In this document: positions 1 through 33,392 of the stretch, piece after piece | How the letters are laid out: each line of letters starts with the position of its first letter | Numbering within the stretch: position 1 is the first letter of the stretch | Source of the DNA: a virus | Taxonomy: Duplodnaviria > Heunggongvirae > Uroviricota > Caudoviricetes | Reading direction: 5' to 3' (one strand) | DNA length: 57,277 nucleotides | IMG/VR virus record: IMGVR_UViG_2721755643_000007 | The notes under the pieces: generated by a model | The model's database searches: none | Told to the model about the DNA's origin: nothing | Seen by the model: only the letters and a program-made list of their open reading frames with translations | Made by a program: the position numbers and the translations under genes

Positions 1-426
1 TCACTGGCTACCTGCATCAGGCTGTTTTTTTGTTTCTTCCGCCTCCCGGATCCGGAATAGTTTTTCTGCTTCCGTATCCTTCACCCAGGCTGTGCCGTTC
101 CACTTCTGATATTCCCCTTCCGGCGATAACCAGGTGACATTTTCCGGTAACGAGCCAAGTTCAGAAATAAATAACGCGTCGCCGGAAGCCACGTCATAGA
201 CGGTTTTTCCCCGATGATCTTCAACGAGATGCCACGATGCCTCATCACTGTTGAAAACAGCCACAAAGCCAGCCGGAATATCTGGCGGTGCAATATCGGT
301 ACTGTTTGCTGGCAGACCTGTATGAGGCGGAATATATGCGTCACCTTCACCAATAAATTCATTAGTTCCGGCCAGCAGATTATAAATTTTTATGGTCCGT
401 GGTTGTTCACTCATTCTGAATGCCAT
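1..426 (-). CDS. tfa: tail fiber assembly protein (lambda Tfa-like, variant C-terminus)
   Basis: 141 aa ORF; N-terminus [24 protein letters not shown] matches recalled lambda Tfa; stop codon at 1-3; directly downstream of stf. Confidence 0.85.
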
Positions 427-9107: not shown

Positions 9108-9806
9108 TTACTGCGAAAGTTTGTTAATGGAAAGGAAGCTGCCAAAGTTGCCGACATTATTGCGAAACTTACAGCCACTCAGGCATTTGCTGCATTTATC
9201 CTTCGTGATATCGGACGTCGGCTGGTCATATTCATCCGCGACCGCCGGACCGCTATAACCGCACTCATCGCCGCGATAGGTCCAGGTGCAGGTGTTGGCC
9301 AGCATGATACGTCCCGGAAAAACAGCGCCATCCGTTTCAGTCGGCGTGGACAGTACAAAAGAGGCACTGACCGCGCTCAGTTCGCTGCACTGCTCGATGC
9401 GCCAGCGGCTGATCACCTCCTGCTCCGGATCGGCTTCGCTGTTTCCGTTGACGAAGTTCACCGCATCCAGAAAGCGGGCGTAAACCTTACGCCGGACCAC
9501 CGTTCCGCCGACCAGACTCTGCAGATCTTCCGCCATCCCGGTGATCATGCCGTGCAGGTTAGAGACCGTCAGTGTCGGACGGGCAGCACTGCCCTTGCCG
9601 TTCATCTCAAATCCACTCCCCTGAATGGGATAGGCCTGATACTGCCGACTCTGCCAGGTGACAGACTCACCTTTTTCGTTCTGCTCATTACAGAAAAAGT
9701 AGCGATCCCCGCCTACCTCGGTCAGGTCGATTTCCCAGAGCACCACGCTGGCCGACTGCTCCGCACGGGTGCATTCATTCAGTGTTTCCTGCCGGATATC
9801 CTGCAT
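9108..9806 (-). CDS. L: minor tail protein L
   Basis: 232 aa between M and K; lambda L-like sequence. Confidence 0.9.
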   Translation of the reverse strand: MQDIRQETLNECTRAEQSASVVLWEIDLTEVGGDRYFFCNEQNEKGESVTWQSRQYQAYPIQGSGFEMNGKGSAARPTLTVSNLHGMITGMAEDLQSLVGGTVVRRKVYARFLDAVNFVNGNSEADPEQEVISRWRIEQCSELSAVSASFVLSTPTETDGAVFPGRIMLANTCTWTYRGDECGYSGPAVADEYDQPTSDITKDKCSKCLSGCKFRNNVGNFGSFLSINKLSQ

Positions 9807-10135
9807 CAGTTCACCACCTGTTCAAACTCTGCGCTGAACTCAACACGCAGCATACTGACCCGCGACGACCATTTTGCGCAGGTCACCTTTATCTGCCGCC
9901 ACTCATAAGGCGGCGTCCACAGAAAGGCTTTCCAGCCCCCGTGCTCTTCCAGAAACGACTCCAGTACCGTGGCCTCCTCACGGGGGACAGAAAGCGTCAC
10001 GCTGTACGTTTTCAGGTTGGCATTCAGCCCGGCAGGCGCTCGCTGGGAACAGCCATCACCAAAGCGCACCTTTCTTACAGAAGGGGCCGAAGCCACATCC
10101 ATACCGGGTTTCACTTTCCAGCGGAAGGTTTTCAT
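9806..10135 (-). CDS. M: minor tail protein M
   Basis: 109 aa; MKTFRWKVKPGMDVAS...EFSAEFEQVVN matches lambda M. Confidence 0.9.
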   Translation of the reverse strand: MKTFRWKVKPGMDVASAPSVRKVRFGDGCSQRAPAGLNANLKTYSVTLSVPREEATVLESFLEEHGGWKAFLWTPPYEWRQIKVTCAKWSSRVSMLRVEFSAEFEQVVN

Positions 10136-12692
10136 CGTCCACCTCCGGAGAACAGACCACCATCACGCATCTGCCCGGTCACAACATCCATTGCCGCCTT
10201 ACGGGCTACGTCATAAACAGCCTTCAGCGCCTGTGGCCCTATCTGACCGTTCGTGCCGTCGTTGTTAATCACCACATGGTTATTCTGCTCAAACGTCCCG
10301 GACGCCTGCGACCGACTGTCCGCCATGCTGCCCGGTGTACCGACATAACCGCCGGTGGCATAGCCGCGCATCAGCCGGTAAAGATTCCCCACGCCAATCC
10401 GGCTGGTTGCCTCCTTCGTGAAGACAAATTCACCACGGTGAACAATCCCCGCTGGCTCATATTTGCCGCCGGTTCCCGTAAATCCTCCGGTTGCAAAATG
10501 GAATTTCGCCGCAGCGGCCTGAATGGCTGTACCGCCTGACGCGGATGCGCCGCCACCAACAGCCCCGCCAATGGCGCTGCCGATACTCCCGACAATCCCC
10601 ACCATTGCCTGCTTAAGCAGAATTTCTGTCATCATGGACAGCACGGAACGGGTGAAGCTGCGCCAGTTCTGCTCACTGCCGGTCAGCATCGCCGCCATAT
10701 TCTGTGCAATACCATCAAAGGTCTGCGTGGCTGCACTTTTAACCTGCGACATACTGTCCGTGGCGCTCTCTTCCCACTCACTCCAGCCGGACTTCAGGCC
10801 TGCCATCCAGCTCCCGCGAAGCTGGTCTTCAGCCGCCCAGGTCTTTTTCTGCTCTGACATGACGTTATTCAGCGCCAGCGGATTATCGCCATACTGTTCC
10901 TTCAGGCGCTGTTCCGTGGCTTCCCGTTCTGCCTGCCGGTCAGTCAGCCCCCGGCTTTTCGCATCAATGGCGGCCCGTTTTGCCCGTTGCTGCTGTGCGA
11001 ATTTATCCGCCTGCTGCGCCAGCGCGTTCAGGCGCTCCTGATACGTAACCTTGTCGCCAAGTGCAGCCAGCTGGCGTTTGTACTCCAGCGTCTCATCTTT
11101 ATGCGCCAGCAGGGATTTCTCCTGTGCAGACAGCTGGCGACGTTGCGCCGCCTCCTCCAGTACCGCGAACTGGCTCTCCGCCTTCCACAAATCCCGGCGC
11201 TGCTGGCTGATTTTCTCATTTGCTCCGGCATGCTTCTCCAGCGTCCGGAGTTCTGCCTGAAGCGTCAGCAGGGCAGCATGAGCACTGTCTTCCTGACGAT
11301 CGCCCGCAGATACCTTCACGCCGGACTGTTTCGGCTTTTTCAGCGTCGCTTCATAATCCTTTTTCGCCGCCGCCATCAGCGTGTTGTAATCCGCCTGCAG
11401 GATTTTCCCGTCTTTCAGTGCCTTGTTCAGTTCTTCCTGACGGGCGGTATATTTCTCCAGCGGCGTCTGCAGCCGTTCGTAAGCCTTCTGCGCCTCTTCG
11501 GTATATTTCAGCCGTGACGCTTCGGTATCGCTCTGCTGCTGCGCATTTTTGTCCTGTTGAGTCTGCTGCTCAGCCTTCTTTCGGGCGGCTTCAAGCGCAA
11601 GACGGGCCTTTTCACGATCATCCCAGTAACGCGCCCGCGCTTCATCGTTAACAAAATAATCATCCTTGCGCAGATTCCAGATGTCGTCTGCTTTCTTAAA
11701 CGCAGCCTCTGCCTTAATCAGCATCTCCTGCGCGGTATCAGGACGACCAATATCCAGCACCGCATCCCACATGGATTTGAATGCCCGCGCAGTCCTGTCT
11801 GCCCAGGTCTCCAGCGTGCCCATGTTCTCTTTCAGGCGGCGGGTCTGGTCATCAAACCCTTTCGTTGCGGCCTCGTTCGCCGCCTGCAATGCCCCGGCTT
11901 CATCGCCGGAACGCTGCAACTGAGCAACATACGCAATCTGCTCCGCCGTCACGTTATGGAACTGGCGTGCCATCGCCGTCAGCCCCGACGTCGGGTCTGT
12001 GGTCAGCTTCCCGAAGGCTTCAGCGACCTTGTCCACCTCCACGCCGGATGCAGAGGAGAAACGCGCCACACTCTGGCTGATGGACGCAATCTGAGCCTCA
12101 CCGCTTACCCCCGCCTTAACCAGTGCGCTGAGTGACTCGCTGGTCTGGTTAAACGTCAGCCCTGCCGCCTGCCCGGCTCTGGACAGGACCAGCATACGAT
12201 CTGCCGTCAGTCCCGCCTGATTGCCGGAAAGGACCAGCGTTTGTTGAAATCGGACAGGGTTGAGTTGCCCTGATACCAGGCATACGCCAGCGCTCCGGTC
12301 GCCACCGCCAGCGAGGTAGCCCCGACCATCGGCAGGGTGATCGCACCGGCAAGCCCCCTGAACATGGGGATCATCCCGCCGAAGGAGTCCTTCACCTGAC
12401 CACCCTGTTGCAGCAGGATCAGCCACGGACTCTGCCCGCCTGCAAGCTGCGTGGCCACGTCAGTGAACTGCGCAGGCAGCATACGCATGGCGGCTTTATA
12501 CTGCCCGACGGAAATTCCCGCTTTCTGTGCAGCCAGCGCCTGCCGGTTCATCGACTGTTCAACGACTGCCGCTGTTTTTTTCGCATCACTTTCCGTACCG
12601 GAAAAATGACGCCTGACTCTGGCCATCTGCTCGTCAAATCTGGCCGCATCCAGACTCAAATCAACGACCAGATCGCCTACCGGTTCAGCCAT
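10132..12692 (-). pseudogene. H: tail tape measure protein H, disrupted by a single-base frameshift in a poly-A run
   Basis: ORF 12207-12692 encodes the H N-terminus (MAEPVGDLVVDLSLDAARFDEQ...STLSDFNK) then leaves frame; ORF 10132-12426 resumes H in another frame at TLVLSGNQAGLTADRM; junction at minus-strand TTCAACAAACGCTGG (plus ~12238-12245). Confidence 0.75.
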
Positions 12693-13119
12693 ACCGGACT
12701 CCTCCTGCGATCCCTTCTGATACTGTCATCAGCATTACGTCATCCTCCGTCATGTCCGCCACATCCGGGGAAGCGGGGATAACTTCATTCCCGTCCGGAC
12801 CAAAGCGGACGCCTCCGGCAAGCCCTGCCGCTTTCTGCATCAGCACATCATCTTCAGGCTCTTCGTCAGCCTCGCGCCGGTTCAGCAGACTGAAATCCAG
12901 CGGATGCATATCCGGATCGCTGAAAAACAGGCTGAGTACGGTGTACGTCAGCCCGGAAAAGTGCATATCCAGCAGAACATCATGAAAATAATGGGTACTG
13001 TAAAAGCGGTGCCAGTCGGCATACTCCGTGGATGACATCCCGGCAAGCATGGCGCGCCAGTCGGGTCGCCCCATCTCACGCGCCAGTTTCAGGGCAAAAC
13101 TCAGCTCACCGTCGAACAC
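12685..13119 (-). CDS. T: tail assembly chaperone T region (expressed as G-T fusion by -1 frameshift)
   Basis: 144 aa ORF beginning at the end of G; lambda T-like sequence. Confidence 0.8.
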   Translation of the reverse strand: MFDGELSFALKLAREMGRPDWRAMLAGMSSTEYADWHRFYSTHYFHDVLLDMHFSGLTYTVLSLFFSDPDMHPLDFSLLNRREADEEPEDDVLMQKAAGLAGGVRFGPDGNEVIPASPDVADMTEDDVMLMTVSEGIAGGVRYG

Positions 13120-13523
13120 TTTCCCGCAGAAACAGGCTCTGCTGGCCCGGCGTCATCTGCCTGTTCAGGTGCATCATTCACAACAAACTCAGACATACCG
13201 GACAGACGCATTACCACATTTTCAGCCTGAGCAATTGCCTCTGTGGGCCAGGTGGTAAGCACTTCCTGCTCAATTTGTTTAACGGCTTCATTCATGGACG
13301 GCATCTTTGTCTTCTGCGGATGGCTATGCCACAGGGACATCGCCACCAGAAAAGCACCGGTTCTGACGAGATCTTCCACGCTCACCTGTCGATTGAGACT
13401 GGATCCCGCCTGTTCTGCCTGTCGTTTCAGCAGGGCGAGATGCTCAATTCGCTGCAGGGCTGACAGTTCAGAAAGCGTGACGCTCACACCGTTATATTCA
13501 AATGATTCGGTTTTCAGGAACAT
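13101..13523 (-). CDS. G: tail assembly chaperone G
   Basis: 140 aa; MFLKTESFEYNGVSVTLSELSALQRIEHLALLKRQAEQ...SAGKCSTVS matches lambda G. Confidence 0.9.
   Translation of the reverse strand: MFLKTESFEYNGVSVTLSELSALQRIEHLALLKRQAEQAGSSLNRQVSVEDLVRTGAFLVAMSLWHSHPQKTKMPSMNEAVKQIEQEVLTTWPTEAIAQAENVVMRLSGMSEFVVNDAPEQADDAGPAEPVSAGKCSTVS
13119..13125 (-). other. programmed -1 ribosomal frameshift slippery heptamer GGGAAAG (G to G-T)
   Basis: Minus-strand CTGCGGGAAAGTG at the 3' end of G where the T frame opens. Confidence 0.6.
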
Positions 13524-17493: not shown

Positions 17494-18813
17494 TTACACT
17501 GGTGTGTTCAGCAAATCGTTAACGGCATCAGATGCCGGGTTACCTGCAGCCAGTGGTGCCGGTGCCCCCTGCATCAGACGATCCAGCGCAGTGTCACTGC
17601 GCGCCTGTGCACTCTGTGGTGCAGCTGCCAGAATGCGGCGGGCCGTTTCCACGGTCATACCGGGGGTTTCGGCCAGCACACGTGCCTGTTCTTCGCGTCC
17701 GTGAGCTTCCTCACAGTTGAGGATCCCCATAATGCGGCTGTTTTCTGCCGCAACCGCAGCGGTGATCTGCGCGTTCACGTCCGGCTGCGCCGCGCTGGCG
17801 TTTTCGCCCTCCGTCGCTTGCACCACGTCAGTAACGTCAGCCTGCGAAGCAGTGGCTGAAACAGTTGTTGATTGAGTCTCTTTGGTCATTCGCCCTCCTG
17901 AGAGACGGGATTTACGTGCATCCAGTGCATCACGCATAACGGTGATCGCATCGGTGCTGTTGACAAGTTCATCAGCCAGTCCGGCATCAATGGCCTCCTG
18001 ACCGCTGTACACTGCAGCCTCGGTATCCAGCACAGCCTGCACGGACAGGCCGGTATATGCCGACACCTTCTGCGCAAACATCCGGCGGGTTGCATCCATC
18101 CGGGACTGCAGTGTCTCCCGGACATCACCCGGTAGATGGCTGTAGGGGTTGCCATCCACCTTATGGCTGCCGCTGTAAATCAGCGTGATTTCCACGCCCT
18201 GTTTCTCCAGCGCAGCGCCGTAATTACTGTGAGCCATCATGACGCCGATGGAGCCTGTCCGGGCGGTCTGCGTGACCAGACGCCGGGAGGCGGCGCTGGC
18301 AAGCAGCTGACCTGCACTGCAGTTCATGTCGTTGGCCAGCGCCCATACCGGCTTTATGTCACGCACACGGGCGATGATGTCAGCACAGTCAAATGCTCCC
18401 GCCACCATCCCGCCCGGTGTGTCCATATCGAGCAGAATGCCGTCCACCATCGGATCGCTGGCAGCCTGTTGCAGACGAGCGATAATGCCGTTGTAACCGG
18501 TCATTCCCGAATACGGCTGCAGCGCCCGCGTCCGGCTGACCAGCGTACCGGACACCGGCAGCACGGCGATGCCGTTCATGACCTGATAACTGCGGGCCTG
18601 TCGTGGTCCGTCATCATCACCGGATAACGCCAGCGCCGCGGGTGCCTCTCCGGCAGTCAGGCTGTCGCCGGATACTGCATCCGTCAGGCGACTGATCCCA
18701 AGCTGGCCTGCAAGCGCACAAAAGAAAACCCGCGCATAGGCGGGTTCAAGCATCAGCGGCTCATTAAAAGCCATGCTGGCAATATGCGGGAGATTACGCA
18801 GCTCTGCTGTCAC
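17494..18813 (-). CDS. C: capsid protease/scaffold protein C (Nu3 nested in-frame)
   Basis: 439 aa lambda C-like from (V)TAELRNLPHIASMAF; GTG start preceded by AGGAGG; overlaps the end of B by 20 nt. Confidence 0.9.
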   Translation of the reverse strand: MTAELRNLPHIASMAFNEPLMLEPAYARVFFCALAGQLGISRLTDAVSGDSLTAGEAPAALALSGDDDGPRQARSYQVMNGIAVLPVSGTLVSRTRALQPYSGMTGYNGIIARLQQAASDPMVDGILLDMDTPGGMVAGAFDCADIIARVRDIKPVWALANDMNCSAGQLLASAASRRLVTQTARTGSIGVMMAHSNYGAALEKQGVEITLIYSGSHKVDGNPYSHLPGDVRETLQSRMDATRRMFAQKVSAYTGLSVQAVLDTEAAVYSGQEAIDAGLADELVNSTDAITVMRDALDARKSRLSGGRMTKETQSTTVSATASQADVTDVVQATEGENASAAQPDVNAQITAAVAAENSRIMGILNCEEAHGREEQARVLAETPGMTVETARRILAAAPQSAQARSDTALDRLMQGAPAPLAAGNPASDAVNDLLNTPV

Positions 18814-19567
18814 TCTTCTCCTCCTCTGTTGATTGTCGCAGTCCGGATTCAAATGCCGCAGCCGCCCAGGCGGGCGGTTTAAGACCGGCTGCACGGCGCT
18901 CCATCGTTTCACGGACCTGCTGGGCAAAAATTTCCTGATAGTCGTCACCGCGTTTCGCGCACTCTTTCTCGTAGGTGCTCAGTCCGGCTTCTATCAGCAT
19001 CACCGCTTCCTGAACTTCTTTCAGACCATCGATGGCCATACGACCGGAGCCTATCCAGTCGCAGTTCCCCCAGGCACTGCGGGCTTCCTGAAAGCTGAAG
19101 CGCGCTTTTGAAGGTAACGTCACCACGCGGCGAACGATGGCCTCTTCAAGCCAGCACAGAAACATCTGGCTCGCCTGACGGGATGCGACGAATTTTCGCC
19201 GCCCCATAAAGTACGCCCACGACTCGTTCGCACTGGCCCGTGCCGTGGAGTAGCTCATCTGGGCGTAATTCCGGGAAAGCTGCTCATACGAGACACCCAG
19301 CCCGGCAGCGATATACCGCAACAGTGACTGCTCAAACACGGAGTAGCCGTTATCCGTATCCTGAGCCGTCTGCAGGTTCAGTGAGTCCCCCGGCATCAGG
19401 TGCGGCACTTTTGCGCCTCCCAGACGGACCGGTGCTGCGGCGTAATACGCGGCAATTTCACCAATCCAGCCCGTCAGCCTTTCCCGCTGCTCCTGACTGT
19501 TCGCGCCCAGAATAAAATCCATCGCTGACTGCGTATCCAGCTCACTTTCAATGGTGGCGGCATACAT
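18794..19567 (-). pseudogene. B: portal protein B, C-terminal fragment (gene split by the island insertion)
   Basis: 257 aa MYAATIESELDTQSAMDFILGANSQEQ...EEEKSDSRAA matches the C-terminal part of lambda gpB; begins exactly at the insertion junction. Confidence 0.9.
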
Positions 19568-19645
19568 CGCCTTTATGAAAAGACAGGAAAAAATAAAATT
19601 TAAAAACAGTACATTACGAATGCTCAGACCTATCGTTTAAAGGAG

Positions 19646-19670
19646 TCGCAATACACACTGCAATACACGA
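19646..19670. repeat. direct repeats GCAATACAC(A) near the island left end, candidate integrase arm-type sites
   Basis: CGCAATACACA and CTGCAATACACGA in tandem; same motif occurs three times at the right end. Confidence 0.5.
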
Positions 19671-19702
19671 TTATTTATAAGATGAGCGGCATCCGTCATA
19701 AA

Positions 19703-19941
19703 GCTGGTGGATGCTTTTTCTATGCATATATGCACAGTTTTAGTGGGCGTTAATGTCGATATAGGGATCCCCATATCGAGATTGGATACCTGGCTTTTTT
19801 CCGGTTAACCTTTAATCAGGCTGGTGGGCTTTACCTGTTTTGTATGAGTGGTCATCATGACCATGTCATAACAAAAACCCCATATTCGTGGTTTTTCTGT
19901 GTCGGGCTATTCTGTCGTTGCTGTGCTGATTTGGCTGGTGG
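19703..19941 (+). other. cluster of three Chi sites (5'-GCTGGTGG-3') within 240 bp, same orientation
   Basis: Exact octamers at 19703-19710, 19820-19827 and 19934-19941 on the plus strand in non-coding DNA, interleaved with palindromes (TGCATATATGCA, TCGATATAGGGATCCCCATATCGA, TGGTCATCATGACCA). Confidence 0.7.
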
Positions 19942-20009
19942 GCTGAATCATCATTACGGCGATGCAGCTATGTAGACGTTCCGGCCTCCTCAAATTGAGG
20001 ATTGTGGAA

Positions 20010-20400
20010 GAATCAATGGGTTAGTCTTACTTTCCCGACATCCCCCAATGGGGGTTTTCGAAACAATCAATAGCTTAGGCTTACTTCCCCGATTTCCTGC
20101 ATTGCAGGTTTTCGAAATAATCAATGGGTTAGGCCATCGTGCAATTTTGCACTTTGCCAGCCAGCGCAATGTCGCGTTATCAGTCCTCAGATGTGAGGGA
20201 TGTAGCCAGCTTTTCCCCCAGTGGGGGATATCCAGCACCGACGGCTTAACTGTGCGTGCCAGCACAAGGTAGCCTTGAACTACTTACTGCATCCCATCTT
20301 ACAGGCCGTGCCTTCCTGCTTAACTTTTTGCAATGCAACAAGTCAGCCAGCGCAATTTTGCGTTATCGGGAATATCAGCAAGTTACCGCCGCAATCGTTC
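20010..20400. repeat. array of imperfect direct repeats each carrying a short GC-stem hairpin
   Basis: Recurring ATCAATGGGTTAG / ATCAATAGCTTAG and GTTTTCGAAA flanks around hairpins CCCCCAATGGGGG, CTGCATTGCAG, GTGCAATTTTGCAC, CCCCCAGTGGGGG; GCCAGCGCAAT(N)TTGCGTTATC present twice. Confidence 0.55.
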
Positions 20401-20664
20401 CGGCTTCTTCCACTGGTAAGTATTTTTCGCGCTCTCCCTCCGTTGTTGAGAACGGCGACGATATGCCAGCAACTCAAGGACTCTTGTTCGTATGTTGCGC
20501 ATATCCACGCCGTTAAGCTCAATACCGTCACGGCGCATCACCTCAGCCACTACACGCACATAATTATCTGCGGTCACGCTGTCCGGCTGCGTGGCCTGTT
20601 CGTCATGCTGCTTGCTGATTCCACAAGCACGGCGGATTAATCGCAGTATTTCGGATTCAGTCAT
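20383..20664 (-). CDS. hypothetical protein (93 aa) immediately downstream of the island small terminase
   Basis: ORF MTESEILRLIRRACGISKQHDEQ...; basic C-terminus; no family recognised. Confidence 0.5.
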   Translation of the reverse strand: MTESEILRLIRRACGISKQHDEQATQPDSVTADNYVRVVAEVMRRDGIELNGVDMRNIRTRVLELLAYRRRSQQRRESAKNTYQWKKPERLRR

Positions 20665-20675
20665 AGCGTACTACG

Positions 20676-21230
20676 TTACTTATCTTTATTCGGCTGCAAC
20701 TTATCCGGTACGTTTCCGGCAGTTTCCATCAGATAATCGGACAGCATCAGCGGTATGTTTTCGTCAAGTTTTGCGCATGCGTTACAGGCTCTGATAACTT
20801 CTTTTTTCAGTCCATCCAGCATAGACGGCTTCATGTCGGGAAACTTCCTTGTCATGGCAAGCGGCAGGCTGTCCATGATTGAAGAAATCTGACTCGCCAA
20901 TTTTGAAAGCACGTATATACAAAACGCTGTATCAATAACGTCGCCGCGTTCGCGCTCGTTTTTAAGCTCCTGCGCCTCTGCCTGTGCTGTCAGCAATCTG
21001 ATCCTGACTCGTAGGAGTTCATCATCATCAATCTCGCCTTTGTCGTCTGTAATCTGGTTAATTGCATTGCTAACCCGATTGTCTATTACGCTGGCAACAT
21101 CATAAAACGCCTCGCGGCCTTTACGTTCAACGGGAGTCACTCCCCACTTGTCGAACGCTGTCGCACTTACACGGCAGCTTTGCGCCATGTTTTTTTTGTT
21201 CATCAGGTGCGATTTCATCAATATCCCCAC
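20676..21230 (-). CDS. terminase small subunit paralog (lambda Nu1-like) encoded by the island
   Basis: C-terminal two thirds align to helper Nu1 (RLLTAQAEAQELKNERERGDVIDTAFCIYVLSKLASQISSIMDSLPL versus [47 protein letters not shown]); adjacent to the island cos; true start may be the internal MNKK. Confidence 0.8.
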   Translation of the reverse strand: MGILMKSHLMNKKNMAQSCRVSATAFDKWGVTPVERKGREAFYDVASVIDNRVSNAINQITDDKGEIDDDELLRVRIRLLTAQAEAQELKNERERGDVIDTAFCIYVLSKLASQISSIMDSLPLAMTRKFPDMKPSMLDGLKKEVIRACNACAKLDENIPLMLSDYLMETAGNVPDKLQPNKDK

Positions 21231-21329
21231 TTAAGTAATGTTTCAGGTTGGTGTATTGGCTTTATCTTTTCCTTTTTATTCATAGAGATAGAGCGAACAA
21301 CAAAACCACCACCAGCACCCGAAAAAGGC

Positions 21330-21394
21330 TCATAAATAGCGAAAACCCGCGAGGTCGCCGCCCCGTAGCCTACCGGATCGCCGGAAAGGACCCG
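21330..21394. other. island cos site: cosN and cosQ-side sequence shared with helper cos, cosB side divergent
   Basis: 65 bp block nearly identical to 34091-34154 (3 mismatches); contains AGGTCGCCGCCC at 21352-21363, the reverse complement of the lambda cohesive end GGGCGGCGACCT; flanks diverge toward the TerS gene. Confidence 0.8.
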
Positions 21395-21419
21395 CCAGCC
21401 AGAACGGGCCCTAATTTCA

Positions 21420-21803
21420 TCAACCAATCAACTTATAGCGACCATCCCGTGCATTGCGACGTACACGCTCAATCTTGAGGCATAGCGCCGCATCTGGCTT
21501 TTTTGGGACAGGTACGCGGCAATATTCAGAAGATCGAGGAATATTGTTTATCCAGTCGATCACTTCACTTAAATACCAGGCCTTACGCCCTTCCGTAACC
21601 TGTACGCGTTCGGGGAACTCTCCGCGAGCCTCAAGGTTTAGCAATGTGCGACGGCTAAGGGTAGTAAGTTCCATCACCTGATTCATATCAACAAGGCGTT
21701 CACTTAAACGCATTTTGTCAGCAATAGCCTTTAATTCCTCTACTGCTGGATCCGGATACATCATTTCGGCAATTGGCTTAAGGTCATTGTAATGATTCTG
21801 CAT
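21420..21803 (-). CDS. AlpA-family HTH DNA-binding protein (second copy in the island)
   Basis: 127 aa with MELTTLSRRTLLNLEARGEFPERVQVTEGRKAWYLSEVIDWINN resembling AlpA-type motifs. Confidence 0.6.
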   Translation of the reverse strand: MQNHYNDLKPIAEMMYPDPAVEELKAIADKMRLSERLVDMNQVMELTTLSRRTLLNLEARGEFPERVQVTEGRKAWYLSEVIDWINNIPRSSEYCRVPVPKKPDAALCLKIERVRRNARDGRYKLIG

Positions 21804-21814
21804 TGTATCCCCCT

Positions 21815-22156
21815 TTACACACGAGCCAGCGGCTGAACAGAAATACCTGAGCCAACAAACGCGGCAACCTTTGCCGACAGTTCTTTTACAGACTCAGGCC
21901 AGTTCAGAGCATCAACATTTAAAACACCTGTCTTATAAACCTGTGCCTGTGTTTTTTTCACTGTGTCGATTTGTACAGCGGAAACATAAACCGCTTTACC
22001 TACGCTCGAACCATCCCATACCACCAGTGCACCTGTTGCATCTTCCTGCATCAGTGGCGTAAATGCAGGAATTACCCCTTTATTAGCTGAAAATATCCCC
22101 AGCGTAGTCACCAGTGCTTCAGTGCCAGCCATGAGTTCAGTGTAATGAGTAGCCAT
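21815..22156 (-). CDS. capsid decoration protein paralog (gpD-like) encoded by the island
   Basis: 113 aa; shares spaced motifs with helper D (TPLM.D, LV.WDG, YK.G, WPE, AF.G..IS) at low identity. Confidence 0.7.
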   Translation of the reverse strand: MATHYTELMAGTEALVTTLGIFSANKGVIPAFTPLMQEDATGALVVWDGSSVGKAVYVSAVQIDTVKKTQAQVYKTGVLNVDALNWPESVKELSAKVAAFVGSGISVQPLARV

Positions 22157-22165
22157 TGCTCCCCC

Positions 22166-23212
22166 TTAGCCAATGCGAACGGTAACAAAACGATTGATGC
22201 GGGCCGGTATTGGCTGTGGTGCTGAATGTGTCTGCACATATTCAATAGCCGGATCACCAGGCACAATATAGTTTTTCGGTGCAAGTTCGGCTTTAGTCAG
22301 CCCCATTCGGATTAGCTCCGGATCCTGAATACCGCCATAGGCGACAATCCCCTGAAGAGCCGTATTGCCAAGCACCATCAAATCAGGATCAAGGAAATGT
22401 TTTTCTGTTCCGTCCTCGTCGGTATAACGCCCGCTGTAAACAACAATCGCAACATCGCCCATATACCCTTTAAAACTCACCGAATCACCAAGGTCTTTAA
22501 GGGCCGTTTCCAGTTCGGAATTAGAACCACGACGGGTATCCAAAGCCTCTTTTATCGCTCTGAATGAACGGTATTTCTTCCATACATTACCACCCATAAT
22601 GATGATATTAGTGACGCCCTCACTAAATTCTGCGTAGCTCTCAATATCATCATTTGGATCAAAAGTTTCTTTATCCTTACCTGACCACTCAGTACCGCCA
22701 GACTGAGTGATGATATTTTGTGGTTTTATATTCCAGTCCAGCTCATAACGTTCAATACCATCGCCCTCAATGATATTTTTCCCCGTTGTGATTGCCTGAA
22801 CAGCAAGCCATTCAATACGTGCACGAATAGCTTTAGCCTGATTTACAATCGCCTGTTTAACTTTAATATTACGCGCCCCAAAAGCATTGTATTGCTCAGG
22901 TGACACACCAGCAGGGCGCACAGCTAACTTATTTGGATCAATGCTGCTTTTCGGCTTCATATAACCTGGACGAATTGTTTTTGATTCGTATCCCTCATCT
23001 CGTGAAACTTTACTGCCCACCATAGGAGAGCAAAACGCCGCGATCGGGATATTTGGATCGTCGATCGTATCAAGAATAATGTCTCTCGATTCAAACATTA
23101 CCGAGCGAGTGAAAAACAAACTGGTAAACAACGCATTTAATTTTTTTTGCACATCTTCAGCATTAGCCACCTGCACAAGCTGTGTAGGCGAATATAAATC
23201 AACCATACTCAT
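22166..23212 (-). CDS. major capsid protein paralog (gpE-like) encoded by the island
   Basis: Start MSMVDLYS; shares ITQSGGTEWS, DTRRGS.SELETA.KDLG and AIVVYSG with helper gpE; rough by-eye identity 35-40%. Confidence 0.85.
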   Translation of the reverse strand: MSMVDLYSPTQLVQVANAEDVQKKLNALFTSLFFTRSVMFESRDIILDTIDDPNIPIAAFCSPMVGSKVSRDEGYESKTIRPGYMKPKSSIDPNKLAVRPAGVSPEQYNAFGARNIKVKQAIVNQAKAIRARIEWLAVQAITTGKNIIEGDGIERYELDWNIKPQNIITQSGGTEWSGKDKETFDPNDDIESYAEFSEGVTNIIIMGGNVWKKYRSFRAIKEALDTRRGSNSELETALKDLGDSVSFKGYMGDVAIVVYSGRYTDEDGTEKHFLDPDLMVLGNTALQGIVAYGGIQDPELIRMGLTKAELAPKNYIVPGDPAIEYVQTHSAPQPIPARINRFVTVRIG

Positions 23213-23423
23213 CCTCTTTACATTCATTACAAATAATTGTGAATATATTCTATTACCGATGTCTGCTATGCGAATACATGCAACCAAGTGCAATGTTGTA
23301 TAAAATATGCCGTAACAACTTCAGTGCTGATAATTCGTGTTAATGTATTTACTTCCTTTGGTCGGGATTTATGTAGCATGCCGGAAAATCTATTTTTTTC
23401 CGGCATCTTTTTGTTTGCAGAAT

Positions 23424-23846
23424 TTAAAACGGTATATTATCGCCGTACGGATCATCATTCCCCGACTGTTGTTTTGCCCTGTTCAGTGCGTCAGTGGCCT
23501 GCCCCTGCTGGCCTTTTTTGCCGCCCGGTCGCGCCGTTCGCGCACTGATTACGCTGTCTGCGATAACCTGCCAGCCCCGCCGCGTTTCGCCGTTCTGGCC
23601 TGTCCACTGGCTTACCTGCATGTTACCCGCCACGCTCACCAGTTCGCCTTTGTGGTGTTTTGCCAGTGCGTCGGCCTGTCTGCCAAACGCCAGGACGGAT
23701 AACCACATCGTCGCCGTTCCGTCATCTGCCTGGCTGCACGGCAGGGGAACCGCCATACTCGCCATCGCCATTTGTGTCCCTTTGCTGGTGGTCTTTAACT
23801 GCGGGTCAGCCACCAGCCGCCCGTAAGCCGCTATCTGTGCTGTCAT
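23424..23846 (-). CDS. single-stranded DNA-binding protein (SSB-like)
   Basis: 140 aa; OB-fold-like N-terminus, Gly/Gln-rich linker, acidic tail ending DDPYGDNIPF. Confidence 0.75.
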   Translation of the reverse strand: MTAQIAAYGRLVADPQLKTTSKGTQMAMASMAVPLPCSQADDGTATMWLSVLAFGRQADALAKHHKGELVSVAGNMQVSQWTGQNGETRRGWQVIADSVISARTARPGGKKGQQGQATDALNRAKQQSGNDDPYGDNIPF

Positions 23847-24157
23847 GCTGTCTGCTCTCCGGTTTTAACATTGATGGTTGTCACCTGTTCCGCTTCGGCA
23901 ATCTCCCGTTCTGTCAGCGTGGCAAAGTTTGCCGCTGCTGTGGTCATGAATGCGCTTATCAGGTCGGGATGTTCCTTCGCGTATCCTGCCCGTGTGTGGT
24001 GGTCTATCGCTTTGATTGCCACCTTTAAGGAAAGCTCTGTCATGTCTAACGCTTTATATTTTGCCTGTGTTCTGTCTCTGCGAATTTTGGTCATTTGTCG
24101 CCCCTGATTCATGTTTTCGGCTGGCATGTTTGTTAAGTGATTTTTATGTATGCGCAT
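23843..24157 (-). CDS. hypothetical protein (104 aa)
   Basis: ORF with stop/start overlap to SSB, downstream of the ori iterons. Confidence 0.45.
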   Translation of the reverse strand: MRIHKNHLTNMPAENMNQGRQMTKIRRDRTQAKYKALDMTELSLKVAIKAIDHHTRAGYAKEHPDLISAFMTTAAANFATLTEREIAEAEQVTTINVKTGEQTA

Positions 24158-24169
24158 TTATTTTCACCC

Positions 24170-24440
24170 CCCCTCGTTTAAAAAGTTTTTAGTTGTGCCT
24201 CCCCCCCTCTACCCATCTACCCGAATGCTCACCATGTCAGTAATGGCGCGGCTTTCAGCGGGTAGATAGCTTTTTGACTCCTCTACCTGCCGTCTACCCT
24301 GCTACCTGAAACTGATAAAATCAGGTAGAAGAGGTAGAGAGCTTTTATTAGCCTTCTACCTAGCCCTATACCCACTTATCATGTTGAATAATATGCGTTT
24401 ATTTTGTTCAGGTAGATGGGGTAGATGGCTTTTACAAAAA
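24170..24440. repeat. iteron array (GGTAGA / TCTACC motifs), candidate island replication origin
   Basis: Many copies in both orientations (CTCTACCCATCTACCC, GGGTAGATAG, CAGGTAGAAGAGGTAGAGAG, CAGGTAGATGGGGTAGATGG) immediately 3' of the primase-helicase gene. Confidence 0.65.
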
Positions 24441-24441
24441 A

Positions 24442-26196
24442 TTATAAAAACGCGTCGCAATCGTCTGTTGTAATTGCGTTGGTCTGCGTTACTCCCTTAA
24501 CTTTTCGCGTAATATATTCATGCCCGTAAACTTTCGCCGCTGGCTTCATGGCCTTGCTGAACTCAGCCACGTTTAGCGGTTTGCTCCTGCCCGCGTATGC
24601 CATAAACGCCAGATAGACGCGGTAAAGGCTGTTCCTGGTCGTGTACTTCACTGAATCACCACCGCCACCCATCATCAGGCCGCGCGCTTCCTCCAGAAAA
24701 TTCAGGAACTGGCAAAACTCAATAACCGGATCCGTCTGTTGCTTTATTGCCAGTGCTTCATCACCGTCACGCTGTTCCAGTAGTAAAGCCCGTGCCTTCT
24801 CAGGGTCGGTAAAGTTCGCCAGCAATCGGCGGATAATAACGGGGATTTCAGCCGCAATCTTTTCCGGTAGCTCCCTGTCTTTTTCGGCCTCACTGACGAT
24901 ATTGTCGAAACGGAAAATCACGCGACGACGTGCCACACCTCCGGCCCGTTCGGTGAATATCATCGGGTTGTTGTTGGTCGCCAGCACCACCGCCCTGATT
25001 ACCGCCGTGAAACGCTTTTCATATTTCGGGTTAATTTCCACGGGGTCGCCGCCTGTGATTTTCTTGATGCCCGTTCCTTCGCCTGTATATTTCGGCTGGT
25101 CAGCCAGGACGATAAGACGACTCCCGACAACCTGCGCACGTCCACCAGCATCATCAAGCGATGTCATTTCAGCGCTTACCGTGTTCTGTTTCCCTGCCAG
25201 AAGGCTGGCTATGTGTGTGAATGTACTTTTACCGCTCCCGCCGTCTCCGGTGGCCTCAATAAACATCTGCCAGTCGTACCGATTCGCCATAATCATGTAC
25301 AGCGCGGCACATATACGCATCATCTTGCGCGGGTCTTTTCCGGCTGCGTGCTCAAGCCATTTATGAAAGTTTGGCGCGTTATCGCGGATGTTCTCCCCTG
25401 GTGCTGGTGGCGTGTACTCAATGCCGTTGTGCGTGGTGATCCAGTTCTCCGGCGTGTGCGGGGAAAATTCCCCCGTTTTCAGGTCAAGCGCACCATTGGC
25501 GAACGGCAGCAAATCGCCAGACGGCTCGCCCATTGGTTCGGCAATAACTTTTAACGCTTCCACGGCGTTATTGATTACGCGCTTGCTGAAAGTGGCCCTG
25601 TGCTCTGAATAGATCGCCACCATTTCGCGGCTAAGTTCCATTGTGCTGACCGGACACCATACCCCGCCGCGCCATACGTGAACGATTTCACTTTCAGGAT
25701 GTACGCAAACGCCATCAAAGCGATCGGCAAGCAACTGCGCGCGCTCACTGTCCGCCATCTGCGAAAGTTGCGCCTTTTGCTTTACCGGAAGCTCAATGAC
25801 CAGACCATCAGAAAGATTCTGGCGTTCACGGGCCAGATATTCGCGCCAGTTCTGCACCTCCTGGCCGTGCATACCCTCAGGATAAAAATTTGCATCCTGT
25901 ACGCCTGCTGCCGCCAGCTTCTGACCAATCGCCTTTATCATTACAGGCGCAAGATATCCGGCCCTGTATATGCGTGCTGATTTTCGGCCTTCCGGCACAA
26001 TTTGCAGATTATCCAGTTCGGATAGCTGCTGCTCCCCAAGCCACACAGGAGGCTCATTATCTCCGGCCATACGCGCATCATGTTCCTGCCATTGTTTCGC
26101 GTGTGCCCAGGCATCACTACCCGCAAAAATAATGACTTCTGTTCCTTTGTGTTTTATGCCGCGTGACTGCTGTTTTACGTTCGGTGCCAGTTTCAT
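24442..26196 (-). CDS. primase-helicase (D5 / P4 alpha-like NTPase with Walker A)
   Basis: 584 aa; Walker A GDGGSGKST; size and domain order typical of satellite and plasmid primase-helicases. Confidence 0.8.
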   Translation of the reverse strand: MKLAPNVKQQSRGIKHKGTEVIIFAGSDAWAHAKQWQEHDARMAGDNEPPVWLGEQQLSELDNLQIVPEGRKSARIYRAGYLAPVMIKAIGQKLAAAGVQDANFYPEGMHGQEVQNWREYLARERQNLSDGLVIELPVKQKAQLSQMADSERAQLLADRFDGVCVHPESEIVHVWRGGVWCPVSTMELSREMVAIYSEHRATFSKRVINNAVEALKVIAEPMGEPSGDLLPFANGALDLKTGEFSPHTPENWITTHNGIEYTPPAPGENIRDNAPNFHKWLEHAAGKDPRKMMRICAALYMIMANRYDWQMFIEATGDGGSGKSTFTHIASLLAGKQNTVSAEMTSLDDAGGRAQVVGSRLIVLADQPKYTGEGTGIKKITGGDPVEINPKYEKRFTAVIRAVVLATNNNPMIFTERAGGVARRRVIFRFDNIVSEAEKDRELPEKIAAEIPVIIRRLLANFTDPEKARALLLEQRDGDEALAIKQQTDPVIEFCQFLNFLEEARGLMMGGGGDSVKYTTRNSLYRVYLAFMAYAGRSKPLNVAEFSKAMKPAAKVYGHEYITRKVKGVTQTNAITTDDCDAFL

Positions 26197-26492
26197 TTTT
26201 TACCTCTGAATCCGTTAATCATGGTTTTCATTTTCTGGATATTTCCCCACGCTTTTTCCCTGCTGATGGGCTTACTGCGGGGTGCGGCATATACCAGGGA
26301 AAAATCACGCCGGAACTGATAAACAGGCATCACGCAGTCATAGCTATACCCCTCACGGCGGTAAGTGATGCGCCGTTCTGCCACGCCTTTAATCGTTACC
26401 GTGCCGCCGTATTTATCGCGGTAAATATCGCCGTTCATAAATTCAGGTCGAGCGGGGCCGCTGGCAATAAAGCCAGAATTTTTCATTTCCAT
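26193..26492 (-). CDS. hypothetical protein (99 aa)
   Basis: ORF overlapping the primase start by 4 nt (operon-like). Confidence 0.45.
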   Translation of the reverse strand: MEMKNSGFIASGPARPEFMNGDIYRDKYGGTVTIKGVAERRITYRREGYSYDCVMPVYQFRRDFSLVYAAPRSKPISREKAWGNIQKMKTMINGFRGKK

Positions 26493-26509
26493 ATTATTTA
26501 TTCCTCGAC

Positions 26510-26731
26510 TTAACTCGACTTATTTGATAGCAGGGCACTATTTATTGCGTCATTGAGTTTTTCTGCTGATTCATCAATAAGTGACAACAGGCCATAAGCA
26601 ATATTTGCATCTTCATTGTCATTTATGCAATCAAGCCACATATTTAATATTGCTTTTGCTGAATTATTTAAAGTTAATGAACTTTCTGCACATGCTAACA
26701 ATTTAAAAAAGACTTCCCGTTCTGTATTCAT
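26510..26731 (-). CDS. hypothetical protein (73 aa)
   Basis: Small ORF in a tightly packed co-oriented cluster. Confidence 0.4.
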   Translation of the reverse strand: MNTEREVFFKLLACAESSLTLNNSAKAILNMWLDCINDNEDANIAYGLLSLIDESAEKLNDAINSALLSNKSS

Positions 26732-26923
26732 TTAATCCCCCACCAGCTTACTTTCTTCCTCAATCAAAAAACTAGCGACACTTCCCGAAAGACGCGCCAG
26801 TAGGCTCGCCAGTGCGGATATATCAGCATCTGTAATTTTGTTCGGGTATACCTCAAGAAGGCGGCAAATAATTTCTGTCTGGTGCGCACGTTCAGCGGCT
26901 TCGTGTAATGTAATTTCCTGCAT
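26732..26923 (-). CDS. hypothetical protein (63 aa)
   Basis: Small ORF, abutting its neighbours. Confidence 0.4.
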   Translation of the reverse strand: MQEITLHEAAERAHQTEIICRLLEVYPNKITDADISALASLLARLSGSVASFLIEEESKLVGD

Positions 26924-27108
26924 TAATGCACCTCTTTTAATTCATACACTGCTGAAATAATGACTTGTGATAAGCCATATTCTGATGATTCGCTTCTCAC
27001 CGCAGCAATAGCCGTCTGAACATTAACAGCCTTCACATTCTGAGCGATACCAATTGTGTGGCCTATTGGGTTAACAGCTCGGGCAAATACACGGAAGGTT
27101 TTAAGCAT
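26923..27108 (-). CDS. hypothetical protein (61 aa)
   Basis: First gene of the leftward small-ORF operon, facing the divergent control region. Confidence 0.4.
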   Translation of the reverse strand: MLKTFRVFARAVNPIGHTIGIAQNVKAVNVQTAIAAVRSESSEYGLSQVIISAVYELKEVH

Positions 27109-27389
27109 GACTCACTCCCTGGCGGATTTTTGCAGCGAATACAGCAACACAACCGGACGGGCAACGGCTACGCGCTTCGCGTTCCGTCCAGGCGGTTACG
27201 TGGATGATTTGAGATTCTCCGGCACTCAGTGCCAGAAAACGCCACACAAAGGCCGTTTGTGTGTGTACAAGGTGTGGTATATGATTTACAGCAACCATAA
27301 CGGCTCCTAGTTTACGTTGTTGGTTAGACGCCCCGTATGTGTTCCCAGCACTGCGGGGCGTTGCTCTTTGTATTTCAACAATCCTTTCG

Positions 27390-27468
27390 GTGTGTTTCAT
27401 GTTATGAGCGCATGAAACACACGTCAAGGCTTTTTGTATTTCTTTTTTTGTGTATACTGAAACACACC
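27390..27468. promoter_or_regulatory. candidate operator/promoter: 12-bp perfect inverted repeat plus an extra half-site overlapping a -10-like TATACT
   Basis: GTGTGTTTCATG-(9 nt)-CATGAAACACAC at 27390-27422; half-site TGAAACACACC at 27458-27468; TATACT at 27453-27458; AGGAG before the ATG at 27489. Confidence 0.5.
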
Positions 27469-27488
27469 GATGATTAGGAGTTTCAGAA

Positions 27489-27794
27489 ATGGCAACGGCT
27501 AACAAAAACGCAAAATCACAACTGACAACTGTCAGAGTCCCACTAGATGTTATGCAAGGGATGGAATCCGTTAAGCTGGACGGTGAAAGCAATGCCGGAT
27601 TTATCGTAACCGCCATGCGCGGAGAAATAGCCCGCCGCCAAGCAGAAGGCAGCGGAGAAAATCCCCTTGTGTCGTCACTGGATGCCCTGGCTAAGGTCGA
27701 ACAAATCGGCATCAAAGCAGCCGAGGAGATCGGGCAACTCGTCACCGTCGCGCGTGAAGAACTCCAGCGACGCAAGGTCAAAGAGCATGAATAG
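27489..27794 (+). CDS. putative ribbon-helix-helix DNA-binding regulator (candidate island repressor)
   Basis: 101 aa; N-terminal TTVRVPLDVMQGMESV fits the RHH beta-strand/helix pattern; transcribed opposite to the replication operon. Confidence 0.5.
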   Translation: MATANKNAKSQLTTVRVPLDVMQGMESVKLDGESNAGFIVTAMRGEIARRQAEGSGENPLVSSLDALAKVEQIGIKAAEEIGQLVTVAREELQRRKVKEHE

Positions 27795-27851
27795 CCAATA
27801 TCAGCGCCATAGTTTGAGGAACGCAGGCGCATTGCTTTACAGGACAGCACC

Positions 27852-28031
27852 ATGAGCGACACAGAATCAACCAAAACACCATCACCAACTCGTAAGAGAC
27901 GACGCAAAAATATAGCGCATGAACATGAATCAGAAAGATTCGCACCTTGTTCGTTTGCTCTTGAGAAATTCCTTAAAGAGCACAGGAAAAAGCTCTCGTT
28001 GCAAACCTTGGAACGAACCAAATCTGACTGA
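27852..28031 (+). CDS. small hypothetical protein (59 aa)
   Basis: ORF MSDTESTKTPSPTRKRRRKNIAHEHE... co-oriented with the RHH gene; below the ORF-track length cutoff. Confidence 0.3.
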   Translation: MSDTESTKTPSPTRKRRRKNIAHEHESERFAPCSFALEKFLKEHRKKLSLQTLERTKSD

Positions 28032-28127
28032 TCACATTGCCCACCAGCCGCAAATGTGGCATTGTTGGTGATGCTTTTGTTTTCCCTTGTTTCCACTGGC
28101 GACCCTTTTGCGGTCGCCTTTGTTTTG

Positions 28128-28706
28128 TCACTGAATGCGGTTACCAAAGTAAAACTCAGGCTGATATTCACGTATCAGCGTTTTTTCTTCTTCCTCCAGC
28201 TCACGCTTTTTGCGCTTACATGCCTGTAGCTCCCTCCCCTTCTCGCTGGCACTTATTTGATATTGCTCTTTACGGCGGGAAAAATCCTGTAATGCACCCC
28301 ACGGGATACCATAAGTCCCCGTTTTTCTGATACCTGGTATCACATTTCTGAATACCCAGTTACTGAAACGATGAGCAAATGTGCCAGGCGTCGTTGCTTT
28401 GCGGCTGCGGGCTATTAGTTTGTAGAAACCTGACTCAGAGATAATTCTCATATTCTGATTTCCTCCTGGGGTGTAAGTTAAATTTACTCCCTTTTCATCA
28501 TCATCAAGCATCTGCAACGCCGTACGCGAATTGGTTAGTTCCAGCGCAGCACAAACATCTTTTGCAACAAACCACGGATCGCCGTTCAGATACACCACAC
28601 GAACGTTCACACTATCAAAGCGCAGAACGACGAGATCACGAATATCGCAGAATTTTTTCACTGGACGAGCGTACCCCTTGCCCGTCACGGCAATATTTTT
28701 ATTCAT
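28128..28706 (-). CDS. Bro-N domain protein (antirepressor-like)
   Basis: 192 aa; N-terminal FDSVNVRVVYLNGDPWFVAKDVCAALEL typical of Bro-N. Confidence 0.75.
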   Translation of the reverse strand: MNKNIAVTGKGYARPVKKFCDIRDLVVLRFDSVNVRVVYLNGDPWFVAKDVCAALELTNSRTALQMLDDDEKGVNLTYTPGGNQNMRIISESGFYKLIARSRKATTPGTFAHRFSNWVFRNVIPGIRKTGTYGIPWGALQDFSRRKEQYQISASEKGRELQACKRKKRELEEEEKTLIREYQPEFYFGNRIQ

Positions 28707-28762
28707 CGCGTTTTTACCTTATAGACAAAAAACCCCTCGTGATGAGGGGCATTATTTACTGG

Positions 28763-29020
28763 TTATTGCTGTTTTGTTTTTCCAGGTTTCCATCCAGGAT
28801 GCCACTCACCACGGATCCATGCCTGAACCTCTGAAAGTCGATACCCTGCAGCACGTTCACCGATCTTGATACGTCGCGGGAATTTACCTGCCTGCTCCAT
28901 TTTCCAGCGTGTTGAGTTTGCCAGCGTGGTAAGTGCTATGCACTCTTTTTCACGAATGAACCGATCAATGTCCTTCATTGTGCGCAAATCGTTTTCATCA
29001 ACAAGAGAATAAATTGTCAT
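28763..29020 (-). CDS. AlpA-family transcriptional regulator / excisionase-like protein
   Basis: 85 aa; CIALTTLANSTRWKMEQAGKFPRRIKIGERAAGYRLSEVQAWI matches the AlpA pattern; immediately downstream of int. Confidence 0.8.
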   Translation of the reverse strand: MTIYSLVDENDLRTMKDIDRFIREKECIALTTLANSTRWKMEQAGKFPRRIKIGERAAGYRLSEVQAWIRGEWHPGWKPGKTKQQ

Positions 29021-29021
29021 A

Positions 29022-30263
29022 TCACACCACCTCTTTATTAAGCTCGATAACGTTGTTGTTAAATCCTGCTATCGTATTAAGGTAATTAACCCACATATTA
29101 AGCACCTCAAGTTTTTTCTTTATATGCCTGCTTTTATTGTAAACACCAGCAACCCCTTTCACTTTATGACCTAAAAGAAGTTCGACAATATAAGGATCCG
29201 CCCCCATATCATTAAGCGTAGTGGAAAATGTGCGCCTGAAATCATGTATGCACCACAAGCCATTAGTATCATGACCAAGACGCCTGCATATTCTGTTTGC
29301 AGCCCCTGTTATTGTCGCCCTTTGCAAAGCACAACCGACAACATAACCGCGATTTTTTGTTTCTGCGTAAAGATTAACGATCCATTGTTTTATTCCGTCA
29401 GGAACAGGCCTTACTATAGCCTCCTTGTTTTTGCTGTGCTCTTTTGGGACTGTCCATACCCAGTTTTTTAAATCCCATTCGTCCCAGGTGGATAGCCTCG
29501 CCTCCTGCTGTCGGCAACCAAACACCAGGCAGATAACCATTATTCTTCGGTTATATATTGATGACAGAGTTAGCAAATTATTACCGTAAGCATAAGACCA
29601 TACATCAGCGGTTTCATTGATATTAAGAACGCGATCCCTTATACCGGATGAGCGCCCGACATAACTTACGTTAATATCTCCAAAGGGATCGCACGCGATG
29701 TATTGCCTGACGCGACAAAAACGCAACGCCTGTTTGATATCAAGAAAAATTGCACCAGACATAACAGGCGCATTTTTTTTGATCCTGTCAAAGACGGTAA
29801 GCCATGTGTGTAATTTGCACTGTTCTATAGCCATATCACCGATATAGGGGAAGATATGCTTTTCAAATCGTTTTATTAAATATTCATGCTCTTTTCTGGC
29901 TGTTGTGGCGTGATTGTCGTACCAGTAAAACAGCGCATCCCTTACGGTCACTGGTTGCATAGTTTTTTCGGCAGCAAGTTTTATTTGCCTGCGGGGGTCC
30001 AGATTTTCAGCCAGCCATTCACGGCACTGATCACGCATGCGCCTGGCCGTTGCAAGAGACATGTCAGGATAGCGACCAAGTGTAAGCCATACCGGAGGGG
30101 ATTCCCTGCCACCAAGACGATAGTAAAAAACAAAGCTGATCCCCCCAACCATGCTTACACGCACAGACAACCCGCGCCCATCCGCTATTGTTTTTTGTTT
30201 GTCCTGCCGTTTTCCGACAAGACTCTTTAACAGTTTGTCACTGAGTTTGTTTTCAATAGCCAT
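29022..30263 (-). CDS. tyrosine integrase (P4-type, with N-terminal arm-binding domain)
   Basis: 413 aa; N-terminal DGRGLSVRV / YRLGG / LGRYPDMSLATAR motifs; C-terminal HDFRRTF ... LLGH ... VYNKS. Confidence 0.9.
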   Translation of the reverse strand: MAIENKLSDKLLKSLVGKRQDKQKTIADGRGLSVRVSMVGGISFVFYYRLGGRESPPVWLTLGRYPDMSLATARRMRDQCREWLAENLDPRRQIKLAAEKTMQPVTVRDALFYWYDNHATTARKEHEYLIKRFEKHIFPYIGDMAIEQCKLHTWLTVFDRIKKNAPVMSGAIFLDIKQALRFCRVRQYIACDPFGDINVSYVGRSSGIRDRVLNINETADVWSYAYGNNLLTLSSIYNRRIMVICLVFGCRQQEARLSTWDEWDLKNWVWTVPKEHSKNKEAIVRPVPDGIKQWIVNLYAETKNRGYVVGCALQRATITGAANRICRRLGHDTNGLWCIHDFRRTFSTTLNDMGADPYIVELLLGHKVKGVAGVYNKSRHIKKKLEVLNMWVNYLNTIAGFNNNVIELNKEVV

Positions 30264-30281
30264 TAAAAGCCCTCAAGAGAT

Positions 30282-30335
30282 TTGCAATACACACCCATCC
30301 CGATCGCCAATTTGCAATACACATTGCAATACACA
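30282..30335. repeat. three direct copies of TTGCAATACACA between int and the right junction, candidate arm-type sites
   Basis: Copies at 30282-30293, 30312-30323 and 30324-30335; same motif as at 19646-19670. Confidence 0.5.
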
Positions 30336-30411
30336 AAACCGCGAAAAACTGGAAGGGTGATGAACGGTCATCAAAAGCATGGAAAACGACATTCCAGACG
30401 CAGCAAGGGTT

Positions 30412-33392
<2,981 letters not shown>

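Follow-up and report, generated by a model that had tools for sequence, protein, structure and literature searches.

The tail tape-measure gene H of the prophage analysed here is read in two overlapping frames, which raises the question of whether this layout is an error of the sequence, a gene that is still expressed across its break, or a genuine loss of an essential tail function. The window, that is the whole stretch of 57,277 nucleotides that was analysed, is a complete lambdoid prophage of E. coli integrated at the lambda attachment site, where its integrase gene (annotated at 54789–55859) is followed by ybhC on one flank and the other flank faces the ybhB/bio side. The tail genes of the window are arranged in the order V-G-T-H-M-L-K-I-J, with H located between the chaperone genes G/T and gene M (9806–10135), and the genes M, L, K, I and J downstream of H are intact as per the annotation. 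The parts of H that concern the break are the following.

10132–12692, minus strand: gene H, tail tape-measure, pseudogene of 2561 bp against the normal 2562 bp.
12240–12242, minus strand: site of the 1-bp deletion, with A3 in place of the ancestral A4, directly after codon K151.
12207–12692, minus strand: truncated N-terminal product of 161 aa, made of gpH residues 1–151 and RWSFPAIRRD.
10132–12195, minus strand: remaining H frame, the 687-aa ORF as called, which starts at Met167.

The minus strand of the window at the lesion reads GATTTCAACAAACGCTGGTCC, with a plus-strand run of TTT, whereas the same place in lambda (J02459), ST866 and HCM-24C-3 reads GATTTCAACAAAACGCTGGTCC. In codons, the coding strand of the window is GAT TTC AAC AAA CGC TGG TCC as against GAT TTC AAC AAA ACG CTG GTC in lambda, ST866 and HCM-24C-3. 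A single uninterrupted frame of ~853 codons is absent in the H of the window, as the frame is lost after codon 151. The ORF at 12207–12692(-) encodes 161 aa and terminates in ...STLSDFNK followed by RWSFPAIRRD, and the remainder of H, from ...TLVLSGNQAGL up to the regular stop, is encoded by the ORF at 10132–12426(-). The region 12207–12426 is the exact overlap of these two ORFs (220 nt) and the lesion lies inside it. The ATG of Met167 (12195) comes 11 nt past the premature TGA, with the frame free of stops upstream as far as 12426. The first-pass annotation had named the gene, the site and the type of change, and was right in all three; it had described two overlapping H frames with the rest of H resuming at TLVLSGNQAGL in the other frame, as these ORFs bear out, and the one A fewer than in lambda that it noted agrees with A3 against A4 in J02459. 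It placed the break correctly and miscounted the native N-terminal codons as 152, there being 151 (M1–K151). The same gene is labelled by PGAP in E. coli VL46 and RMDEC364 as “phage tail tape measure protein, frameshifted.”

The ancestral state of the site was sought by comparison with intact H genes. When one A was put back, the window H encoded a protein of 853 aa that is identical to WP_069915119.1 of ST866 and matches lambda gpH at all but 14 positions (98.4% amino acid identity). A comparison with the H of close relatives had been proposed along with the first description of the break; in it, the deletion is the sole difference between the intact H of ST866 and that of the window, with 0 SNPs in 10132–12692. 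Over its full length, the window H showed nucleotide identity of 97.9% with lambda H and 98.6% with phage 434 H. The best 30 phage records, which include lambda, 434, HK629/HK630 and DE3, all span 2562 bases against the 2561 of the query. When a 61-bp probe centred on the lesion was used, and complete E. coli genomes were counted as matched at ≥80% of the probe length, the deletion was found in 2 of ~2,861 genomes, namely VL46 and RMDEC364, and the rest (~2,860) keep A4. Thus, the deletion is rare and A4, which is kept by all the others, is the ancestral state. Because the lesion is a defined single-base difference from ~2,860 orthologous copies, chance is not an issue in this comparison. The two-frame layout of H is likewise not conserved, being present in two of these ~2,861 complete genomes and in none of the 30 best phage records.

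An intact H allele that is 99.9% identical to that of the window was also seen in HCM-24C-3 (locus L016) and N-01 (locus L018), at positions 20001–22562 of these loci, where it sits in a different prophage that adjoins appY/ompT/nfrA. Such a near-identical H at another prophage site shows that tail modules have been exchanged between lambdoid prophages at different sites. The prophages of HCM-24C-3 and N-01 carry frameshifts of their own, in rusA in both and in FI in HCM-24C-3.

The first possibility weighed was that the missing base is a homopolymer error made in the sequencing or assembly of VL46 and that the real H is intact. The window matches E. coli VL46 (NZ_CM177010.1, 3344401–3401677) at every base. 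Speaking for an error, the change falls in a mononucleotide run, a second homopolymer frameshift (in tfa, 7 against 6) occurs in the same prophage, and VL46 and RMDEC364 apparently come from one submitter and one country. Against an error, RMDEC364 shares the deletion and is set apart from the window by one ISCro1 and two ISEc60 insertions, and the identical deletion was present in two further draft assemblies at NCBI (GCA_902501735.1, GCA_902501855.1) and in at least eight assemblies of different read runs in Logan (ERR3610389, SRR4181492, SRR31933614, SRR22490105, ERR3329295, SRR15416927, ERR921009, and SRR10605683), the independence of which was judged from accession ranges and small SNP differences. 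The contig from SRR4181492 was the same in nine samples. The exact 161-aa product was found on 24 contigs in one exact-sequence look-up and on 17 in a second, which also gave the 687-aa downstream product on 14. In the loci fetched, the mutant 21-mer occurred in 10 of 10 and the wild-type 21-mer in 0 of 10, so that the intact single H frame, which resequencing was expected to reveal if the break were an artefact, appeared in none of them. The contigs bearing the deletion differ from the window by 0–3 SNPs (per 5–20 kb), and some of the Logan and NCBI contigs have SNPs of their own, which argues that they are not all the same DNA. Furthermore, a run of four is short for such mistakes, and the A4 read in ~2,860 complete genomes of the same context indicates that the site is not systematically error-prone. 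A sequencing error, which the first-pass annotation had named as equally possible, was set aside on the strength of these independent assemblies, and is the least probable of the explanations considered. The deletion is therefore taken as real and as the mark of a single young lineage.

Another protein of 161 aa (P0004, 47 contigs) was considered as a second frameshift allele and was found to be a contig-end fragment of intact H. In the locus from ERR3610389 (L005, 602–1181), the tail gene Z appears as two ORFs, 86 and 81 aa long, and its comparison with the window shows a 1-base gap; the cause is either one more frameshift of this isolate or a fault of the assembly. More generally, single-base prophage frameshifts in complete assemblies can be checked in this manner against assemblies of independent read runs.

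With the deletion accepted as real, the possibility that translation bypasses it was considered, either by −1 frameshifting in the overlap or by re-initiation at Met167 to give the 687-aa product, so that tails would still be templated and would possibly be shorter. In-frame deletions in lambda H were reportedly found by Katsura and Hendrix in 1984 and by Katsura in 1987 to give shorter tails that nevertheless assembled, and this speaks for a bypass. So do the downstream H frame, which is fully open and otherwise identical to intact H, and the ATG 11 nt past the stop. The translational “correction” of indels is moreover a known phenomenon, as described in a published account (PMC5009743). The sequence around the break was scanned for signals that could serve either route. 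No heptamer of the type X XXY YYZ was found in the 220-nt overlap, nor any homopolymer longer than five; the longest run there is G5, with the A7 run of H situated upstream of it. There was no convincing match to a Shine–Dalgarno sequence before Met167. Also standing against a bypass are the two-frame layout, seen in so few of the genomes compared, and the conserved TMP_2 domain, which would be cut in two with residues 152–166 lost. Since the lineage is so young, the undamaged state of the downstream frame says nothing either way. The only genuine slippery site in the neighbourhood belongs to the programmed frameshift between G and T, and is placed as follows.

13119–13125, minus strand: G GGA AAG slippery site of the G-T programmed frameshift, intact, ~880 nt upstream of the lesion and unrelated to the defect.
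13101–13523, minus strand: ORF of G.
12685–13119, minus strand: ORF of T.

Programmed recoding at the H lesion, for which the overlap offers no slippery site, was thus rejected as a candidate, and a bypass of any kind appears quite improbable. Complementation in trans by a second H of the same genome was another candidate to be rejected, as neither VL46 nor RMDEC364 was found to have a second lambda-type H at megablast sensitivity, with one copy in each. A stronger form of the bypass would have the split H alive, such that a re-initiated 687-aa tape measure, perhaps together with the 161-aa piece, nucleates tails of ~80% length; we regard this as more improbable still. If it were true, the tape measure of the window would be a natural one in two pieces or truncated at its N-terminus, and the phage-inducible satellite embedded in this prophage would be transmissible on short-tailed particles.

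What the break would do to the protein was judged from its domains and from the role of gpH. Classical H-defective mutants of lambda are tail-defective. The Pfam domains TMP_2 (PF06791) and Tape_meas_lam_C (PF09718) were found in the H of the window. TMP_2 covers residues 54–256 and the break falls at profile position ~102 of 208, so that this domain is divided between the two ORFs, the 161-aa ORF having its first half and the 687-aa ORF its second half together with Tape_meas_lam_C. Even with both pieces made, the 15 residues 152–166 are missing. The best-predicted membrane helix of lambda gpH spans residues 116–140 (PMC12617516), which fall within the 161-aa fragment. In lambda, the gpV tube wraps a gpH oligomer that sets the tube length, the C-terminus of gpH (818–849) sits on the gpI trimer in the tail tip, and the tape-measure protein initiates tube polymerisation together with chaperones (PMC10721106). 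A stop after residue 151, taken with this role of gpH in tube initiation, should abolish tail assembly. As the overlap has neither a slippery heptamer nor a long homopolymer and no second lambda-type H was found in VL46, the lesion is best read as a putative null mutation of an essential tail gene. From the 98.4% identity to gpH, the known H mutants of lambda and the finding of neither a recoding signal nor another copy of H, we infer that the prophage would be unable to make tails.

The late operon of this prophage is interrupted a second time, by a phage-inducible chromosomal island (PICI).

19566–30471, minus strand: helper-embedded PICI of ~10.9 kb, the second interruption of the helper's late operon.

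It splits the portal gene B into fragments at 18794–19576 and 30460–31293, and its two ends share an 8-bp core, atcgcctt (aaggcgat when read on the coding strand), at 19566–19573 and 30464–30471. The PICI genes, all of which are co-oriented with the late operon, include those for an integrase, a Bro-N protein, a primase, SSB, a gpE-like capsid protein, a gpD-like decoration protein, an AlpA-type regulator, and a Nu1-like small terminase. The PICI shares 99.8% identity with its counterpart in APEC O2-211 (CP006834.2/1830842-1841738), which is listed as the helper-embedded PICI Eco4623.11.B_Phage_portal_2_241 with core aaggcgat and with its helper at ybhC (PMC10111431, Supplementary file 3). By its sequence, the PICI of the window is assigned to the published site group B:Phage_portal_2:241 (PMC10111431). 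The word “helper”, by which the first-pass annotation had called the prophage, is therefore apt, as the PICI in its portal gene is of a helper-embedded type already published. A 12-kb query made of the PICI and both its junctions was covered to at least 80% by 52 complete E. coli genomes. Many helpers of such PICIs look truncated, leaving “abandoned” satellites behind (Tommasini, Mageeney and Williams, 2023; PMC10111431), and the VL46 lineage stands early on the way to such an abandoned helper-embedded PICI.

In RMDEC364, IS insertions were seen in the satellite region (locus L001, 1937–4431 and 10225–12840), with the two ISEc60 inside the primase gene of the PICI and ISCro1 (IS66 family) between the small-terminase region of the PICI and the portal fragment. 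The same genome showed 0 SNPs relative to the window in the 27 kb compared, and IS activity outpaces point mutation in the VL46/RMDEC364 lineage.

Two other lesions were located in the helper.

25–31, minus strand: tfa frameshift, a run of 7 against 6 in ST866, labelled “frameshifted” by PGAP.
44819–46047, minus strand: IS2 transposase gene (annotated extent and not the limits of the element), between ren and emrE.

The IS2, which could be polar on Q expression, occupies the helper's delayed-early (nin-like) region. In the early-left region, no ORF of the size of an N antiterminator was found between the S24-type repressor gene and the kil-like gene (49732–50328), and both N and cIII are annotated in the related composite of APEC O2-211. 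The immunity/early-left region of the window is either a different module (repressor, cro-like gene and YdaT) or the result of a deletion. Cargo genes were also observed, for an OmpC-type porin (37838–38920, between Q and the lysis genes) and for the multidrug transporter emrE (44349–44681). Regarding the nearest genomes with an intact H, ST866 is without the PICI, and HCM-24C-3 and N-01 carry their H in another prophage. No sister lineage that has the same composite with an intact H, and that could order the acquisition of the PICI, the IS2, and the H frameshift, was thus found among them.

These results together suggest, with high probability, a genuine and recent lineage-specific slippage deletion in H that inactivated tail assembly in a decaying helper/satellite composite. 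In the mechanism proposed, replication slippage would have removed one A from the A4 run of H, after which translation from the normal H start would end with 151 native and 10 foreign residues and TMP_2 would be halved. The N-terminal segment with the predicted membrane helix would be parted from the ruler region and the gpI-docking C-terminus, tails would no longer be built, and induction would yield at best tailless, non-infectious heads. The helper-embedded PICI would likewise remain tailless, unless another lambdoid phage supplied tails. The frameshifts in H and tfa together with the IS2 would place the composite in early mutational decay.

It was also considered that the inactivation was selected and not neutral, through a gain to the host from a lysogen that retains immunity and cargo genes and releases no infectious phage or satellite, or as the outcome of a conflict between satellite and helper. 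The composite has possible host-benefit cargo (the OmpC-like porin, emrE, and lom), and several independent hits have fallen on late or structural functions, i.e. H, tfa, and the portal gene. Selection on these grounds is nevertheless unlikely, as the allele is rare and limited to one near-clonal lineage and the site shows no recurrence in other lineages. The loss of H would spare the cell neither induction nor lysis once induced, and frameshifted prophage genes were frequent among the few relatives that were looked at, such as rusA and FI of HCM-24C-3. The slippage deletion in H is ordinary prophage decay, already flagged in the public annotation by the RefSeq term “frameshifted.” For the VL46/RMDEC364 lineage, it means that the helper of a helper/satellite composite has come to be minus an essential tail gene. 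With such a helper, induction is expected to give neither plaques nor transduction of the satellite unless tails are provided in trans. The lineage would thus offer a clean and datable case of the abandoned state of a helper-embedded PICI, which Tommasini et al. had inferred from truncated helpers.

Among the known systems, the closest are the amber mutants of lambda H, the protein-ruler gene. The window has the same H (97.9% at the nucleotide level and 98.4% at the amino acid level when repaired) within the same V-G-T-H-M-L-K-I-J order, and its early premature stop, like those of the lambda H mutants, should prevent tail initiation. Unlike the laboratory nonsense mutants of lambda, the window has a frameshift that arose naturally in a resident prophage, and the phenotype of this frameshift is a predicted one. 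A second parallel is the stf gene. The stf lesion that distinguishes lambda PaPa from Ur-lambda is said, after Hendrix and Duda in 1992, to be a single-base change. That laboratory lambda has a disrupted stf is documented (PMC10721106), and there too a structural gene of a lambdoid tail has been frameshifted and fixed in a lineage, to which the tfa of the window is the closer parallel. The difference is that stf and tfa are dispensable for plaques, whereas the H of the window is essential for any tail. The arrangement also resembles that of G-T, another tail-assembly gene of this operon that is read in two overlapping frames. Unlike G-T, which has a conserved slippery G GGA AAG and a universal arrangement, the H site has no slippery sequence and its layout is confined to 2 of ~2,861 genomes. 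Finally, the window is like the composites described by Tommasini and co-workers (PMC10111431) in having a PICI that is co-oriented within the late gene B at the core aaggcgat. In the APEC O2-211 composite the H of the helper is intact, whereas the helper in the window has lost its H, and has done so by a point frameshift instead of a truncation.
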